A stretch of 34,436 nucleotides of DNA from a virus. Its lineage: Duplodnaviria > Caudoviricetes. Below the pieces are notes generated by a model. It ran no database searches. It had not been told where the DNA came from and worked only from the letters and a program-made list of their open reading frames with translations. The stretch lies in IMG/VR virus record IMGVR_UViG_3300030376_007093, positions 1 to 34,436 of that record; one strand, 5' to 3'. Position numbers and translations under genes: made by a program. This document shows, piece after piece, positions 1,185 through 33,597 of this stretch. The first letter of the stretch is position 1, and each line of letters starts with the position of its first letter.

Positions 1185-1198
1185 GTATATTTACAATA
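1185..1198 (+). promoter_or_regulatory. -7-like element GTATATTTACAATA (candidate late-type promoter)
   Basis: Identical 14-mer at 1747-1760. TATATTTA is one base off TAnnTTTG; no -33 TTG upstream. Confidence 0.45.
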
Positions 1199-1254
1199 CA
1201 TACTGTTTTAATTTTTGTTTTGTAAAGGGTGCTAAATTTTAGCCCCTTTTTTTT
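1198..1254 (+). ncRNA. Candidate trans-acting antisense small RNA against translation initiation regions
   Basis: Lies between a promoter-like motif and a terminator, with no + strand ORF. 1199-1223 is complementary to the start regions of genes at 24641(-), 602(+), 27813(-) and 31834(+). Confidence 0.5.
1224..1254 (+). terminator. Intrinsic terminator
   Basis: AAAGGGTGCTAAA-T-TTTAGCCCCTTT stem followed by a T-run. Confidence 0.8.
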
Positions 1255-6856: not shown

Positions 6857-8602
6857 ATGAATATTAGTGTATATTTAAACGATGTATTATACAACCCCCA
6901 AAATTTAGGGGACTTTACAATAAGTACAAGCCTAGACACACAGGCGGGGGCGTTTCAATATGTTAAAACCTTAGATAATAATTTAGTATTTACGGGCGAA
7001 GCATACACGTATATTTTATTACATGGCGAATGTCAAAAGATAAAAGTAAAAATTTTACAGAATTGTAACGGCGAAAATTACGAATTATATAAAGGCTATT
7101 TTACATTAAATAGATGCAATATAAACGAAGACAGGAAAACAATAGAAGCCGAACCCCGCGAAGACACATTATATAATTGCGTACTTGATAATTTAGATCG
7201 TAAATTTAACTTTTTAGAAAATACCGAAATTGTAAGCGCTGAATATAGCAATAATATACAACTAGAATATAAATTAAACCCAATAAATGACGCCGTTCTA
7301 CCTTACTATGGCGACCCCTTAGAGTGTGGGACGGCGGGCAATTATGTAAGCGCTTTAGGTTTGGGCTTTTTGTATTGCCGTGAAATTATAACCGTAAGAT
7401 GTAACGGGGGGCAGCCACAACCGCCAGCGGGTACGGGGTGGCAACTATTAGTTAATAATTGTAAAAAAGGTTTTTGTACATTTGCCCGAAAAGCTAGCGT
7501 TTTTACGTCGTCTATTTTACCGTGTAGCGCCTTTTTTGCGAACCCCACAACTAGCCCGCCACCTGTTACGGCTTTAAATGAAAATTGGGTCATTGTGGCT
7601 AGTGTTACGGCGGGCGGTACTACATTAGCCTTTTATGTCGATTATAATTTTATACAAACACCGCAAACACTTACTAACGGGCGCGATCTTATGAGCGTTT
7701 TAAATTTCGGTTTGAATCAATATTGCCCCGAATTAGACGCCGTAAGCGAATTTTTTACAAGCGATGTTAACCCAGTAACGGGGGCAAGCCCCAGCAAATC
7801 GAAGGGCGTACAGTTGCACAGTATAAGCGATATAAAAAACCCCGCAGCAAGTGAAAAAGCGACACTAGAAGAAATAACATTAAAGGACATTTTAGAAAAT
7901 ATTGTTTCTAATCGTTTTAATTGCTTTTGGTTTGTTGATGAAAATAGTAAAAGGCTAATAATTAAGCACTATAAAAATTTAACCTTTACAGGGACAACAA
8001 ATATAAACACACTAAGCCCCGAAAGTTTAAAGTATAAAAACGAATACAGGTATTTAAACGAAAACAACGCAATAACAGAAATTTTTGAAGGGCAAGACGA
8101 CGACATAGACTTTGCGGGCGTCCCTATCGACTATAATAATAGTTGCGGGGAAACGGTTATAAATAGAAATTTAGGCGCTATTTATACAAATGTTGCATTT
8201 ATCATAAACAACCCCGCCGAATTTGCCAATAATGGTATGGTTTTAATATTAAAAAATTCGTTAAATATTCCCCCAAATACAAGCCCGCCAAGTAGCACCG
8301 CCGAAAACGGGGCAATTACGGGCGAATATAAACCTAACGCGCCTTTGGGTATGGCGAACTTACAAGCGGCTTACTGGCGGCATTTTAGACCCTTTAAAGC
8401 GGGTGTATTAAACTTTGACGCGGTAGAATTTGAAACGGTAGCCCCTAGAAAGCAACAGGTTGAAATAAATATTAATGAATGTTGTGTATTTTTCTTTAAT
8501 GAGCGTAATAAATACATAACAAATTTAACAGAAAACGGTATATTAAATAAATACGTTTTCAATTTAAAAACAAATAGTTTAGAACTTGAAATAATATATT
8601 AA
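6857..8602 (+). CDS. Probable virion structural protein (tail tip/hub-like), Cys-rich
   Basis: 581 aa, beta-rich composition, within late operon; function inferred from context only. Confidence 0.55.
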   Translation: MNISVYLNDVLYNPQNLGDFTISTSLDTQAGAFQYVKTLDNNLVFTGEAYTYILLHGECQKIKVKILQNCNGENYELYKGYFTLNRCNINEDRKTIEAEPREDTLYNCVLDNLDRKFNFLENTEIVSAEYSNNIQLEYKLNPINDAVLPYYGDPLECGTAGNYVSALGLGFLYCREIITVRCNGGQPQPPAGTGWQLLVNNCKKGFCTFARKASVFTSSILPCSAFFANPTTSPPPVTALNENWVIVASVTAGGTTLAFYVDYNFIQTPQTLTNGRDLMSVLNFGLNQYCPELDAVSEFFTSDVNPVTGASPSKSKGVQLHSISDIKNPAASEKATLEEITLKDILENIVSNRFNCFWFVDENSKRLIIKHYKNLTFTGTTNINTLSPESLKYKNEYRYLNENNAITEIFEGQDDDIDFAGVPIDYNNSCGETVINRNLGAIYTNVAFIINNPAEFANNGMVLILKNSLNIPPNTSPPSSTAENGAITGEYKPNAPLGMANLQAAYWRHFRPFKAGVLNFDAVEFETVAPRKQQVEININECCVFFFNERNKYITNLTENGILNKYVFNLKTNSLELEIIY

Positions 8603-19092: not shown

Positions 19093-19106
19093 ATCGTTCA
19101 TAATTT

Positions 19107-19143
19107 AAAAAGGTTGTTTATATTTATAGGCAGCCTTTTTTTT
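19107..19143 (+). terminator. Intrinsic terminator after capsid/tail-tube genes
   Basis: AAAAAGGTTGTTTATA / TATAGGCAGCCTTTTT stem with GU pairs, then T-run. Confidence 0.8.
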
Positions 19144-23143: not shown

Positions 23144-23229
23144 AAAAGAAAAAAATTAAACTACCCAAAAGGGGCGGGCGTGTAAGCACTAACAAAAAAA
23201 CAAAGGCGCGCAAATATGGCAAAAAGTAG
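23140..23229 (+). CDS. 29-aa protamine-like peptide MKKKKIKLPKRGGRVSTNKKTKARKYGKK (not in ORF track)
   Basis: ATGA overlap with the upstream stop, fills the gap to ATG 23216; 15 of 29 residues are K/R. Confidence 0.65.
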   Translation: MKKKKIKLPKRGGRVSTNKKTKARKYGKK

Positions 23230-23503
23230 AATACAAATAGGTAAAGTAATTACGATAAAGGGCAAAAAATACCGTATTGGGCGCAGCACGGCGAAGGGTA
23301 AGAAATACAAAGCTACACCTTTAAACGGTGGCGGCGTTGTAAACTTTGGCGCATCGGGTGCATACGCAAAGCCAAACACTAAAAAGGGTGATTCATACTG
23401 CGCGCGAAGTGCTGGCATAAAAAGCACTAAGAAAGGGGCAACGGCTAACGATTTTAGCCGTATGTTATGGAACTGTAACGGAAAAAAATCTATGCCTAAA
23501 TAA
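23216..23503 (+). CDS. Small basic protein (DUF6321/DUF5754-like)
   Basis: KGKKYKA..VNFGASG..KGDSYCARS..SRMLWNC; family named from memory of the motif. Confidence 0.65.
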   Translation: MAKSRIQIGKVITIKGKKYRIGRSTAKGKKYKATPLNGGGVVNFGASGAYAKPNTKKGDSYCARSAGIKSTKKGATANDFSRMLWNCNGKKSMPK

Positions 23504-23895
23504 TGAAACCAACGCCAACAAATAGCAAGCTATACAACCGTATTAAAAAACGTATTAAAAGCGGCTTAGACAAAAAAGGCGCTAGGTGGTCGGCTAGATC
23601 GTCGCAGCAGCTAGTAAACGAATATAAAAAGGCAGGCGGTAAATATAAAGGTTCAAAACAAAAATCTAGCCTTTCGGAATGGCAGCGGGAAACGTGGGTA
23701 AGTATTAATAGTGTCGGCGATATAGTCGGGGCGTGTGGGTCTAGTAGAACGAAAAGCGGTAAGCAATATAGGTGTTTACCAAAAAGCAAAGCGGAAAGCC
23801 TAACAAAGGCGCAACGAAAAGCAACCGCACAAAAGAAATTAAAAGCACCTAACCAAGTAATTAAAAACACTAAAAAAGCCCGCGTAAGGCGTTAA
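23503..23895 (+). CDS. Basic protein, DUF5872-like
   Basis: PTNSKLYNRIK..WSARSSQQLVNEYKKAGGKY..LSEWQRETWV..YRCLP. Confidence 0.7.
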   Translation: MKPTPTNSKLYNRIKKRIKSGLDKKGARWSARSSQQLVNEYKKAGGKYKGSKQKSSLSEWQRETWVSINSVGDIVGACGSSRTKSGKQYRCLPKSKAESLTKAQRKATAQKKLKAPNQVIKNTKKARVRR

Positions 23896-24407: not shown

Positions 24408-24641
24408 TTAAATTTCGCCGTTAATTATTAAAGTTATTAAAGTATATTTCATTTGGTTTTTAAAGTCTAATGTAGTGCAAACTTTAGGTAAAGGGTAATT
24501 ATCTAAATTTTTTAAAACTAAATTGTTTTTATTTGAATCATTAATTAATAAATAATGTGCAGCCGTTGGGTCATTGTTTACAATTTCTATTTTTTTAGCT
24601 TTTGAAAGTATACCCGCTTCGTTTCTTGTTAAATTTTGCAT
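24408..24641 (-). CDS. Hypothetical early protein
   Basis: 77-aa ORF with leader ACAAAACAAAAATTAAGACATT. Confidence 0.7.
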   Translation of the reverse strand: MQNLTRNEAGILSKAKKIEIVNNDPTAAHYLLINDSNKNNLVLKNLDNYPLPKVCTTLDFKNQMKYTLITLIINGEI

Positions 24642-24817
24642 AATGTCTTAATTTTTGTTTTGTTTAAATTATTTATACATTTTATACAGGTTACATATTT
24701 TTTTATACTTGTAAAGTCTTTACATTTTGACCAATGTACACCGCAAGAAGTAGAAGCAACTATAAAAGATCTTTTTTTGTCGTCACTTATATAGTGTATT
24801 TTTATTTGTTTTCCCAT
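24629..24817 (-). CDS. Small putative zinc-binding protein
   Basis: IHY..SCG..VTCIKC. Confidence 0.65.
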   Translation of the reverse strand: MGKQIKIHYISDDKKRSFIVASTSCGVHWSKCKDFTSIKKYVTCIKCINNLNKTKIKTLCKI

Positions 24818-25037: not shown

Positions 25038-25069
25038 CAAATATAGGGTGTTTACTTTTATTTTGCAAG
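25038..25069 (-). promoter_or_regulatory. Bacteroidota sigma70-type promoter
   Basis: Minus strand CTTG, 20 bp, TATATTTG. Confidence 0.8.
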
Positions 25070-25187
25070 TTTTTTGCGAAATTTATTTTTAATAAAATAC
25101 ACCCAAAACAAGCCAAACCGTTTATTTATCGGTTTTTAGGGCAAATAAAAAAAAATAAACTTTTTTTAGTAAATACGTTTTTACAAC

Positions 25188-26952: not shown

Positions 26953-27813
26953 TCATTTATCAAGCCTTTGTAATTTGTATGTTTTTATTATTCTCAATAA
27001 TTTTTTATTGTATTGTGGGCTATTTAGGCAACTGGTAGCGTATACATAACCGCCATTTTTTACGAAATTTTTGCTTTCGGCTACGGTTTCGCCCCCGCAA
27101 ATTGAGCAAAGCCAGCCGCTAATATCGTTACTTTTTAGGCGGCTTTTATATCTACCGTTTAAAACGTTTGTATAGTTTCTAATACTAAACCAATACGACG
27201 GGAATATATGAAAGCGATCTTTTGGGGTATCGTCGGCAACGTTTAAGGATTTACTTTTATCTTTTCCCCTGTATTTTATGCCGTATAGATTTCGACCCTG
27301 TACGGCTAGGCGTGAAAGGCCGTAATTACTTTCTAAAATAGCCGCCGCCGCAATTAAAGACGGGGGTATATTTTTTAACTTACCTTCGACCTTTGCCGCG
27401 TCGCTTATCCATTTAACAAACGTTTTTATATGGTTACTTTTCCACGTTTTAAAGCGCTCTTTAATTAGCCGCTTTTGTTTGTTGGTTACGGGTAGCGTTT
27501 CGATTTGTTCGCCTTTGTATTCTTTTGATGTTAACCATTTACGCCCGACGGGTAAACCGTTTAAGTCGTAATTCGTACCGCTTATCGTTTCGGCTGCCCC
27601 CGCCCATATTTCGGCGGTTTTTTTTATTTCGGGTTTATTTACCTGTTTCTTTACTTGCTGGGGTTGCTCTTTTATACAAATACTATCTATTATTGTATTT
27701 GTGATTATTTCGCCCTGTGTAGGCATTTCTTTTTGTGTGTTGCTAAATTGTGCGTTTTTTAAACATAACACCGCTACGGCGTAAATAATAACCCCTAATA
27801 AATTGTAGTACAT
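26953..27813 (-). CDS. GH73 glucosaminidase-like peptidoglycan hydrolase with N-terminal membrane segment
   Basis: AAILESNYG (catalytic Glu), NLYGIK, YAT motifs; hydrophobic residues 5-18. Confidence 0.85.
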   Translation of the reverse strand: MYYNLLGVIIYAVAVLCLKNAQFSNTQKEMPTQGEIITNTIIDSICIKEQPQQVKKQVNKPEIKKTAEIWAGAAETISGTNYDLNGLPVGRKWLTSKEYKGEQIETLPVTNKQKRLIKERFKTWKSNHIKTFVKWISDAAKVEGKLKNIPPSLIAAAAILESNYGLSRLAVQGRNLYGIKYRGKDKSKSLNVADDTPKDRFHIFPSYWFSIRNYTNVLNGRYKSRLKSNDISGWLCSICGGETVAESKNFVKNGGYVYATSCLNSPQYNKKLLRIIKTYKLQRLDK

Positions 27814-27894
27814 AATTTTTGTTTTGTTGTCGTTTTAAATACTTTACTTTAAAAGCTAAAGTTTCAAAATTAAAATATATTTATTTTTAATATT

Positions 27895-28645: not shown

Positions 28646-29179
28646 TTATTTGTTTTTTAGCTTATTGATTAAATCGTTTTTACTTTGTTCTTTTTCCTGT
28701 TTTTTAAAGTCGTCGGCTTCATCCTGCCCGTAAATATTAAATTCGTAAGCATTAACCAATTTTAAAACAACGCGAGAAAGTGCGCGTTTTTCGGCTAGCA
28801 TTAAGTAATAGCTAGACGTACAATTTGCGGGGCTAGCTTCGCCAAAAGTTTCTACTTTTCGACCATTTAAAAAGCCGTAAGCCTTAACCGCTGCATAATC
28901 TTTGTCGATCTTTACAACATCAAAAGTAACGTTTATATCTTTTGCCCTTTGAATTTTTTCTATACCTGTACGGGTTATAATAGTATAAAACCCTTTTTTA
29001 TGTTTGTATGTGTCTTCGGGTAATAGTCCGCAATCCTTATACAAAGCGTTTAAAATTTCTTTTTGTGTCATTTTTACGGGTTGTTTAGGTTTTGGCTTTA
29101 CGGTTTGTTTAGCCCCTATATTAGCCGCCATTTGTTCGGCTTCCATTTGTTGGGTAAATATTTCTTTTTGTCGTCCCAT
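28646..29179 (-). CDS. Probable ssDNA-annealing protein (recombinase partner of the exonuclease)
   Basis: Adjacent to YqaJ; TFGEA..MLAEKRALSRVVLK..IYGQDE resembles Rad52-fold annealase C-terminal helix. Confidence 0.55.
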   Translation of the reverse strand: MGRQKEIFTQQMEAEQMAANIGAKQTVKPKPKQPVKMTQKEILNALYKDCGLLPEDTYKHKKGFYTIITRTGIEKIQRAKDINVTFDVVKIDKDYAAVKAYGFLNGRKVETFGEASPANCTSSYYLMLAEKRALSRVVLKLVNAYEFNIYGQDEADDFKKQEKEQSKNDLINKLKNK

Positions 29180-29219
29180 ACTTTTAAAATTTTGTTTATT
29201 ATGTAATTATTAACGATAG

Positions 29220-29251
29220 CAATATTAAATATTAAAATTATATTTTGCAAA
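29220..29251 (-). promoter_or_regulatory. Leftward early promoter
   Basis: Minus strand TTTG, 20 bp, TAATATTG. Confidence 0.7.
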
Positions 29252-29271
29252 TTTTTTGCAATATTTCGCAA
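29245..29271. promoter_or_regulatory. Three phased operator-like boxes between divergent promoters
   Basis: TTGCAA 29245, TTGCAA 29256, TCGCAA 29266; the same pair occurs at 526/537 and 25063/25074. Confidence 0.6.
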
Positions 29272-31794: not shown

Positions 31795-31833
31795 AAGCAA
31801 AACATTAAATTAAACAAACCAAAATTAAAAAGT

Positions 31834-33597
31834 ATGTTAAAAGACGCAATTAAACTACATGAAAGCGGGTTTAAAATAATACCCGTTAGGCAAGATAAAA
31901 CGCCCGCGTGTCGTTGGTCGGAATACCGAAAAAGCCAAAACCTAGACGACATAAAAAAACTATTCGCAAGCCATACCGAAGGGCTGGCGATCATAACGGG
32001 GGACGGTTTAGAAGTTATCGACATAGATTTAAAATATAGTTTAGACCCCTTTAAATTTTTAGATGATATTTGTAATCGTATAATCGAAACAATAGGCTTA
32101 CAGGATTACGAAAGCCTAATTTTTGTACATACTCAAAACAAAGGGTTTCATATTTACTATAAAACCGACGTTATAGAAGGTAATCAAAAACTAGCTAGCC
32201 GTTACACAACGGACGAAGAACGAACGAACCCCAACGATAATACACGGGTATTAATCGAAACGCGGGGGCATGGTGGCTACGTAGTCGCACCCCCTACAAA
32301 TGGCTATAAATACGACGCCCCAGCGCGTACACTTGAACAAATACCATTTTTAACGGACTTTAAGCGCAATAAATTAATTAAGGTTTTAAAAGAATTTAAC
32401 CAAACGGACGAACACTACAAACGCGCCCAAATATCGACACCCTTAAAAGACTTTTCAAGTAATAAAACGACTATTGAAGCCTTTAACGATTCGCACACGT
32501 GCCGCGAAATTATAGAAGCTAACGGCTGGGAATTTCAATATACACAGGGGCAAAACGATCTATATAGGCGCCCCAACAAAGACAAAGGCGTAAGCGGGGG
32601 TTATTCTCAAAGCCTTAACCTTTTTTATTGTTTTACATCGTCCACCGAACTAGAACCAAATAAAGCATTTAACCCGTTTCAATTATATACTTTTTTTAAT
32701 CATTCGGGGGACTATCACGCAGCTAGTAAAGAACTTTATAAAATAGGGTACGGCGATAGACTAGAAAAACAAGACTTTAAAAAGCAATTAAATATAATAA
32801 GCGACGAAGTACGGCAAAAGGAAAAAAACACCGATAGCGACTTAATGCAAAGTATATTTAATACAAATTTTGATATACATATAAAACCGACAATAAAACC
32901 CAGTACATTATTTTTAGTTGACCCATTAACCAATAAAGAAACGGGTATAGGTGGCGAAGGCGAAATAATCACATTTTTAGGTTTACAAAAATCGAGAAAG
33001 TCAGCAATAGCCAGCGCGGCGGCTAGTTGTTTCATACAGGGGGTTAATAGTTGCCTAAACTTTCGGGCGGCTTATGACGGTAAAAAGATTATACATATAG
33101 ACACAGAGCAAGGCCAATACGACTATTATAAAACGTGCGAAACAATGCTACATTATGCAGGACACAACAACCAAAACGCAAATAATTTTTATAGTTTCCG
33201 TTTGACTAATTACACCACACTACAAAAGGTTCAATTTTTGGATTATATAGTTAACAAATTAAATAATATAGGTTGTTTATTTTTAGACGGTATTGTAGAC
33301 CTTTGCAAAGATTACAACGACTTGAAAGAAGGGCGCGAGATTGTGCAATATGTGCGGCGCTTATGCTCAAAACATAGCTTTTTATTAATGAATGTTTTAC
33401 ACAATGCACGTAGCACAGGAAAAGCGCGGGGGCATTTAGGTACGGAATTATTAAACAAAGGTAAATGTAATATAAACATAGTAAAGGATAAAGAAGGCGG
33501 TTATAGTACGTTAACTATTGACGATCTACGGGGCGCACACGAACCGCAAGGCTTTGACTTTTCGCATAATCATTTTGGGCAATTAGAAATAGTATAA
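31834..33597 (+). CDS. Prim-Pol primase-polymerase fused to RecA-like (AAA_25) helicase
   Basis: IIPV..KTP, VIDID, TQNKGFHIYY, ETRGHGGYVVAPP; GLQKSRKS, HIDTEQ, FLDGIVD, RGHLGTEL. Confidence 0.88.
   Translation: MLKDAIKLHESGFKIIPVRQDKTPACRWSEYRKSQNLDDIKKLFASHTEGLAIITGDGLEVIDIDLKYSLDPFKFLDDICNRIIETIGLQDYESLIFVHTQNKGFHIYYKTDVIEGNQKLASRYTTDEERTNPNDNTRVLIETRGHGGYVVAPPTNGYKYDAPARTLEQIPFLTDFKRNKLIKVLKEFNQTDEHYKRAQISTPLKDFSSNKTTIEAFNDSHTCREIIEANGWEFQYTQGQNDLYRRPNKDKGVSGGYSQSLNLFYCFTSSTELEPNKAFNPFQLYTFFNHSGDYHAASKELYKIGYGDRLEKQDFKKQLNIISDEVRQKEKNTDSDLMQSIFNTNFDIHIKPTIKPSTLFLVDPLTNKETGIGGEGEIITFLGLQKSRKSAIASAAASCFIQGVNSCLNFRAAYDGKKIIHIDTEQGQYDYYKTCETMLHYAGHNNQNANNFYSFRLTNYTTLQKVQFLDYIVNKLNNIGCLFLDGIVDLCKDYNDLKEGREIVQYVRRLCSKHSFLLMNVLHNARSTGKARGHLGTELLNKGKCNINIVKDKEGGYSTLTIDDLRGAHEPQGFDFSHNHFGQLEIV

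Follow-up and report, generated by a model that had tools for sequence, protein, structure and literature searches.

A 57-nt unit at positions 1198–1254 of a Caudoviricetes phage genome probably encodes a trans-acting antisense small RNA, shaped like the FopS RNA of Bacteroides, that would damp the translation of early genes late in infection. Judging from sequence and computed structure, we give this reading a probability of about 0.6.

The window, that is the whole stretch of DNA analysed, is IMG/VR record IMGVR_UViG_3300030376_007093, positions 1 to 34,436. The record ends overlap by 140 nt and a 98.8% identical strain (L104) reads across the junction; the window thus maps as a 34,296-bp circle, despite a CheckV completeness rating of 80%. 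The five sequencing runs containing at least half of the window's words were marine metagenomes from two studies. The genes fall into two sets:

1782–24151, + strand: late/structural genes (terS, terL, portal, tape measure, lysozyme) in one block
Rest of the circle: non-structural genes (SSB, exonucleases, GH73, resolvase, replication initiator, primase, methylase)

The labels ‘early’ and ‘late’ were assigned from gene function and position; the 50 curated start regions comprise 20 early and 30 late ones. A Shine-Dalgarno-like word precedes only 1 of 47 starts, A occupies position −3 in 66% of them and position −12 in 74%, and a primase scan of the genome collection returned seven loci (29–33% identity), all titled as Bacteroidota groups. 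From the near absence of Shine-Dalgarno words, these adenines and the distant primase relatives we infer a Bacteroidota host. Here as in relatives, a GH73 glucosaminidase gene (26953–27813, − strand) lies among the early/replication genes and away from lysozyme gene 9570, which belongs to the late block. Two small lysine-rich genes at 23216–23895, 64–75% conserved, are found between terL and portal in relatives instead.

The unit had been pointed out in a preliminary description of the DNA, and its coordinates, sequences and matches were all present as claimed there. The features of the locus are as follows:

1185–1198, + strand: promoter-like 14-mer with a non-canonical −7 box at 1186–1193; predicted transcription start at 1198 or 1199
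1747–1760, + strand: exact repeat of this 14-mer at the terS–structural operon head, with gene 1782 starting 21 nt further on
1198–1254, + strand: predicted small RNA, 57 nt, with a single-stranded 5′ seed and a terminator in the computed fold
1199–1223, + strand: seed, an anti-AUG followed by the complement of the common A/C-rich leader
1224–1254, + strand: intrinsic-terminator-like hairpin with T8 (−11.8 kcal/mol, z −2.6), located after the seed as had been described
1167–1190, + strand: A-rich stretch upstream; it is predicted to mask the seed in the read-through RNA of gene 893
1257–1299, − strand: terminator-like hairpin of the converging gene 1325–1699, expected to halt minus-strand transcription short of the element

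We paired the 29-nt single-stranded part of the predicted RNA with the 50 curated start regions, using 400 dinucleotide shuffles as the null. Six starts are predicted targets, located 0.3 to 11 kb from the element along the circle (energies in kcal/mol):

24639–24663, − strand: start region of a 77-aa gene (24641), strongest predicted target (23/25 positions, −25.4)
582–604, + strand: start of gene 602, second predicted target (−22.5)
31814–31836, + strand: primase-polymerase start (gene 31834, PF09250), weaker predicted target (−16.1)
27813–27827, − strand: GH73 glucosaminidase leader (PF01832), weaker predicted target (15 nt exact, −14.9)
29177–29201, − strand: first gene of the leftward recombination operon (29179), weak predicted target (−14.5)
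884–895, + strand: gene 893, directly upstream of the unit, weak predicted target (−12.5)

Gene 30628 (−13.1) ranks between the last two. These pairings agree with the preliminary description in detail. The two differences between 1199–1223 and the antisense of 24639–24663 are a U-G wobble and a C-U mismatch, while the next-best place for the seed on either strand reaches 19/25 and the best leader–leader pair among the 50 genes 20/25; in the duplex with gene 602, 9 bp including one wobble and a further 14 bp flank a 3-nt bulge. The 24641 protein is one of just four such proteins in the database, itself included.

The best energy, −25.4, compares with −13.9 ± 1.9 for the shuffles, and the difference between early and late starts, −5.0, with −1.0 ± 0.7; none of the 400 shuffles was as good in either statistic, nor in the top-3 and top-5 statistics. 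All of the 12 best partners among the 50 starts are non-structural (early) genes, as are the 10 best when folding is included. The comparisons proposed in the preliminary description, of start regions with shuffled controls and of early with late starts, thus both came out in favor of the antisense reading. Against other windows the claimed pairing stood out for two genes only: among 6848 non-start windows the best reached −17.8, so that 24641 and 602 alone pair better than all of them, while targets three to six are not above some coding windows. Without the top two targets the early bias was still matched by none of the 400 shuffles and the best-three mean by 6 of 400, a value weakening to 22 of 400 when the anti-AUG is held fixed. 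The primase, GH73, 29179 and 893 starts are therefore weak one by one and significant as a set, and we conclude that the seed has two strong targets (24641 and 602) and a soft but real tail of weaker ones. Complementarity to the starts of distant mRNAs is beyond chance, as expected of a trans-encoded small RNA.

The seed appears free in the short transcript. From a start at 1198 its mean unpaired probability is 0.89 and its opening cost 0.4 kcal/mol; by computation alone, the unit joins an accessible 5′ seed to an intrinsic terminator downstream, the arrangement of FopS/GibS-type sRNAs. The hairpin at 1224–1254 likely also ends the gene 893 transcript. In the RNA reading through from gene 893 the opening cost rises to 7.1 kcal/mol (start at 1166) or 12.6 kcal/mol (start at 1100), and binding to 24641, folding included, falls from −21.7 in the short form to −9.6. 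As a structure beyond chance the sequestering hairpin (1166–1224) had to be rejected: 85 of 300 shuffles were as good, and the hairpin may therefore be incidental.

The 14-mer at 1185–1198 is by itself modest evidence for a promoter, given that 121 14-mers are repeated in this genome; what counts is its position at both heads. According to the accessible part of PMC6847099, transcription in Flavobacterium johnsoniae starts 4–5 nt past the −7 box, a box that almost always ends in G; applying this spacing to the 14-mer puts the start at 1198–1199. The ‘−7-like motif’ of the preliminary description has an exact copy at the late head and the correct spacing, but its final base is A in both copies, not the near-invariant G of host promoters. 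As canonical boxes precede 602, 1699, 24996 and 27813, we infer a separate, putatively late, promoter class common to the predicted RNA and the late operon. The suggestion of an early-to-late shut-off draws on this shared 14-mer and on gene positions, and these two observations are all that speaks to its timing.

In the mechanism that we propose, a promoter of the late-operon class would start the RNA at 1198–1199. Its unpaired 26-nt 5′ arm would cover the AUG together with positions −3 to −13, the A-rich part of the leader that Bacteroidota ribosomes use in place of a Shine-Dalgarno sequence; adenines at −3, −6, −12 and −13 promote initiation in Bacteroidota, as described in part of PMC6847099, and in 24641 and 602 all four fall within the stretch paired with the seed. 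Genes 24641 and 602 would be shut strongly, and primase, GH73, 29179 and 893 damped, so that translation of early genes would be blocked once late transcription likely begins. The gene 893 read-through RNA, with the same seed folded away, would be largely inactive.

Relatives of the phage were found by TerL and portal scans (portal identity 35–48%). Most of those reaching far enough upstream carry a short ribbon-helix-helix-like gene (PF07878, a weak match at E 0.014), a second gene, a terminator-ended element and one gene, followed, often directly, by terS. The second gene of L002 and L008 is a weak homologue of window gene 1325 (E 9e-7). In the window, the 3′ UTR and terminator of gene 1325 (1257–1324, − strand) occupy the same place as the L002/L008 elements; the first 30 nt of this UTR pair with the 602 start at −20.0 kcal/mol (8 of 200 shuffles as good), and it is possibly a vestige of the ancestral element. 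A cassette comprising a ribbon-helix-helix-like gene, a coiled-coil gene of 70–80 aa and the antisense element with its terminator is found at:

L009: 8511–9049
L113: 5543–6088
L006: 2332–2901
L110: 7078–7545
L088: 2185–2566 (here without the ribbon-helix-helix-like gene)

Only ∼20 nt separate the cassette terminator from the next gene, for which reason the late genes of the relatives may depend on read-through.

We compared 13 elements with 13 sets of starts by their longest exact complements (300 shuffles); the relatives' elements were picked by synteny after viewing, not blind, and starts were called by a rule favoring A-rich leaders. With this selection, the element matched starts of its own genome, with at most 2 of 300 shuffles as good, in the window and in 6 of 12 relative records (G001, L090, L002, L008, L110 and G008). 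It failed to do so in the other six (54, 44, 54, 157, 117 and 274 of 300 shuffles as good), of which L113, L088, L105 and G007 are fragments, L105 and G007 carrying the same element, and G002 and G006 are more distant. As a control, we scored 76 other terminator-ended units from ten records: 6 of them were equalled by none of 100 shuffles, compared with 5 of the 7 detected elements. Of the six control units, two are reverse strands of called gene leaders (G001 15370 and L110 6317), a third (G008 157) has the form of a reversed leader and one is a second unit of the window, 19093–19143, described below.

The window's element fits none of the 12 other start sets (z ≤ 2.0), and none of the 12 other elements fits the window's starts (z ≤ 0.7). 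Several relatives' elements fit another relative no worse than the genome they come from (L113–G001, z 6.2; L002–L008, z 5.3); among the relatives, specificity of the match is, as read from these comparisons, by lineage only. For G001 and L090, complementarity to the same mRNAs is divided among three modules, in antiparallel order and with stems between them: the hairpin loop matches the AUG, the linker the leader, and the terminator interior a motif at the mRNA 5′ end. In L009 the same AC-rich 5′ motif, complemented by the interior of the element's terminator, follows every early promoter (115–130, 2270–2282 and 7805–7820). An anti-AUG lies in the predicted loop in G001, L113, L088, L010, L002 and L008 and is absent in L110, L105 and G008. 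Different words are used to match the same genes: those matched include both the primase and GH73 in the window, G008 and L105, and the primase in L110.

The contiguous seed and single hairpin of the window's element differ from the split elements of the relatives, and the flanking genes differ as well. Since the window's element cannot be aligned to theirs, the resemblance may reflect analogy and not homology. A MAFFT alignment of eight relatives' elements reached 52% column identity, too poor for pair counting. Searches from the window itself were negative: blastn of 500–2700 found no match among isolate phages, an exact pattern scan of viral contigs gave 0 hits, a scan with gene 893 found no relative, and five primase-related records had no TerL match. 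In the more distant L083 (317–845) and L095 (2179–2495), intergenic tRNA-like sequences were seen by eye after the corresponding gene.

The main rival to the antisense RNA is a relic of a leader: the element would be what remains of a hairpin–leader–ATG module, copied from that of 24641, whose early gene on the minus strand has been lost, and would now serve only as the terminator of gene 893. The element is a contiguous 23/25 direct repeat of the 24641 leader. Read on the minus strand it resembles the ordinary hairpin–leader–ATG module that precedes early genes of this phage family, and the reversed real leaders among the controls above also score high. Gene slots are, moreover, swapped between strains; in L104 that of gene 602 holds an unrelated 74-aa gene (L104: 6430–6654), whose altered leader still pairs at −18.0. 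We consider a relic without present function unlikely, for several reasons. The terminator has T8 on the plus strand and just T3 on the minus strand, a separate terminator ends gene 1325 first, and the 14-mer of the late head lies at promoter spacing, facing the plus strand. The differences from 24641 improve pairing to other targets: compared with the antisense of the 24641 leader, the element reaches −22.5 versus −16.8 on 602 and −16.1 versus −11.9 on 31834, is also better on 893, equal on 29179 and slightly worse on 27813. Its 5′ six bases fit the hexamer ending the starts of 602, 893, 29179 and 31834, not that of 24641, and no antisense of a real leader pairs better with other genes than the element does (−17.0, versus −16.4 for the best of them). 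Finally, the split elements of the relatives cannot be relics. An origin as a relic and a present function can be compatible. Conservation of 1199–1256 in L104 is uninformative here, as 98.8% identity makes it expected.

If the antisense RNA is real, it could still be a constitutive repressor of immunity or a carrier state, like c4, instead of a late switch. In each arm of the divergent early region it covers the first genes; the lineage-specific seeds of the family recall immunity specificity; and the window has an HTH-like gene, 29326 (an atlas lead only, 0.89), together with palindromic operator-like 17-mers:

526–542: before gene 602
25063–25079: before gene 24996
29245–29271: divergent promoter region beside the HTH-like gene 29326

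The 17-mer pattern has six matches versus 0.54 expected, having been built from these very sites. We nevertheless regard a standing repressor as quite improbable: no integrase or repressor family was found among the 50 ORFs of the window, the portal scan of the genome collection returned no relative, and the promoter-like motif is common with the late head while early units have canonical boxes.

Mere coincidence of composition, a U-rich 3′ UTR pairing with A-rich leaders through base content, has very little left in its favor. Both sides are low-complexity, and the high-scoring control units and the ordinary strength of targets three to six point that way; but shuffles that keep dinucleotide composition never reach the observed values, which largely refutes it for 24641 and 602, and the match is specific to the own genome. 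That the unit is instead the leader of a translated 14-codon minus-strand peptide is scarcely credible, the strong Bacteroidota-type leader and ATG at 1201 being offset by a frame cut to three codons in L104 (one inserted base), by the lack of a canonical −7 box on the minus strand between 1735 and 1201 and by the intervening terminator; nor does any real gene lie opposite the unit, this frame apart, that would make it a cis-antisense RNA. The reading of the unit as an antisense small RNA, advanced in the preliminary description, thus gains from the shuffles, the predicted free seed, the loss of this ORF in L104 and the analogous elements of the relatives. Its further suggestion of action on host mRNAs fared worse: in 81 genomes of one sampled phylum the long seed had 14 hits versus 8 for a reversed control, and the 13-nt core with ATG hit 11 of the 81; broad host targeting is thus unsupported for the long seed. 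Four sequencing runs compared with the window gave short fragments only, the RNA run yielding two 35-nt pieces less than 90% alike, which carry no information on the unit.

Among known systems, as far as the accessible parts of the sources go, the closest in form are FopS and GibS of Bacteroides thetaiotaomicron, which have an accessible 5′ seed and an intrinsic terminator, an architecture with which FopS blocks translation (PMC11697453). Unlike them, the predicted RNA is phage-encoded, aimed at the phage's own genes, present in a single copy and preceded by a non-canonical putative promoter; it pairs with its top targets over 20–25 near-perfect base pairs and has no Rfam match. A scan of the window with Rfam 15 gave 0 matches at E up to 1.

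The P4 CI RNA is grouped with c4 as a phage antisense RNA. The c4 RNA of P1/P7 is, like the predicted RNA, phage-encoded, trans-acting and antisense, occluding ribosome-binding regions; its specificity shifts with a few bases, and its modules a′ and b′ have a parallel in the two or three modules of the relatives' elements (PMC5320573, in part). In the same partial account c4 has three stem-loops, is processed by RNase P and serves lysogeny and immunity, whereas the window's RNA has one hairpin and no hit to the C4 family, and its predicted targets are replication and other non-structural genes in a genome where no integrase was found; we do not count it as a c4 member. By analogy, the predicted RNA would work like FopS and the relatives' elements like c4, although structure and the Rfam 15 scan do not mark the predicted RNA as a member of either family.

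P22 sar, lambda OOP and aQ are antisense RNAs that time or bias development, sar by blocking translation initiation; each is described with one target gene, while the window's element fits several starts. Lambda PreS and VP882 VpdS are trans-acting phage sRNAs active in lytic growth, as proposed here, but they depend on Hfq and act on host mRNAs or sRNAs, while for the window's RNA no host-wide target set was found (both comparisons from the accessible part of PMC12197685). In that part of this 2025 review, phage sRNAs either have one phage target or act on the host, and none is directed at multiple start sites of the phage that encodes it; our literature search, with limited coverage of subscription journals, found no paper on such a phage RNA.

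The second terminator-ended unit noted among the controls lies in the late operon:

19093–19143, + strand: 3′ UTR after gene 18508, antisense to the starts of SSB 25575, 10920 and YqaJ 28643

Its exact complements are 15 nt (SSB 25575), 13 nt (late gene 10920) and 11 nt (YqaJ 28643), with none of 200 shuffles as good. We identified no promoter for it, and the corresponding position in four relatives holds nothing comparable that is antisense to starts; the SSB leaders of L110 and L105 instead match the main element over 10 nt.

A wider reading, which we offer tentatively and would give somewhat worse than even chances, is that the early leaders of the phage family carry a private address tag and that RNA by itself drives the switch from early to late. 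The tag would be read by an antisense element ending in a terminator, located where the late region begins; the element's wording would change with the tags by lineage, primase and GH73 being kept among the targets. In the window the job would be split between the stand-alone 57-nt RNA, made under a copy of the late promoter and folded shut in early read-through, and 19093–19143 in the late operon, covering SSB and a recombination nuclease. Early-gene shut-off in small phages without a known late regulator is poorly understood, least of all in Bacteroidota; if the reading is true, one short RNA recognizing a regulon-wide leader tag would amount to a compact global repressor consisting of RNA. 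From the 57-nt unit and the counterparts specific to other lineages, orthogonal repressor–tag pairs for Bacteroidota could be derived.

Closer strains of the phage exist, with proteins 79–91% identical. Strain L104 is without the methylase and gene 30223, and has an extra 295-aa gene before the primase (L104: 3116–4003) with a copy of the primase leader.
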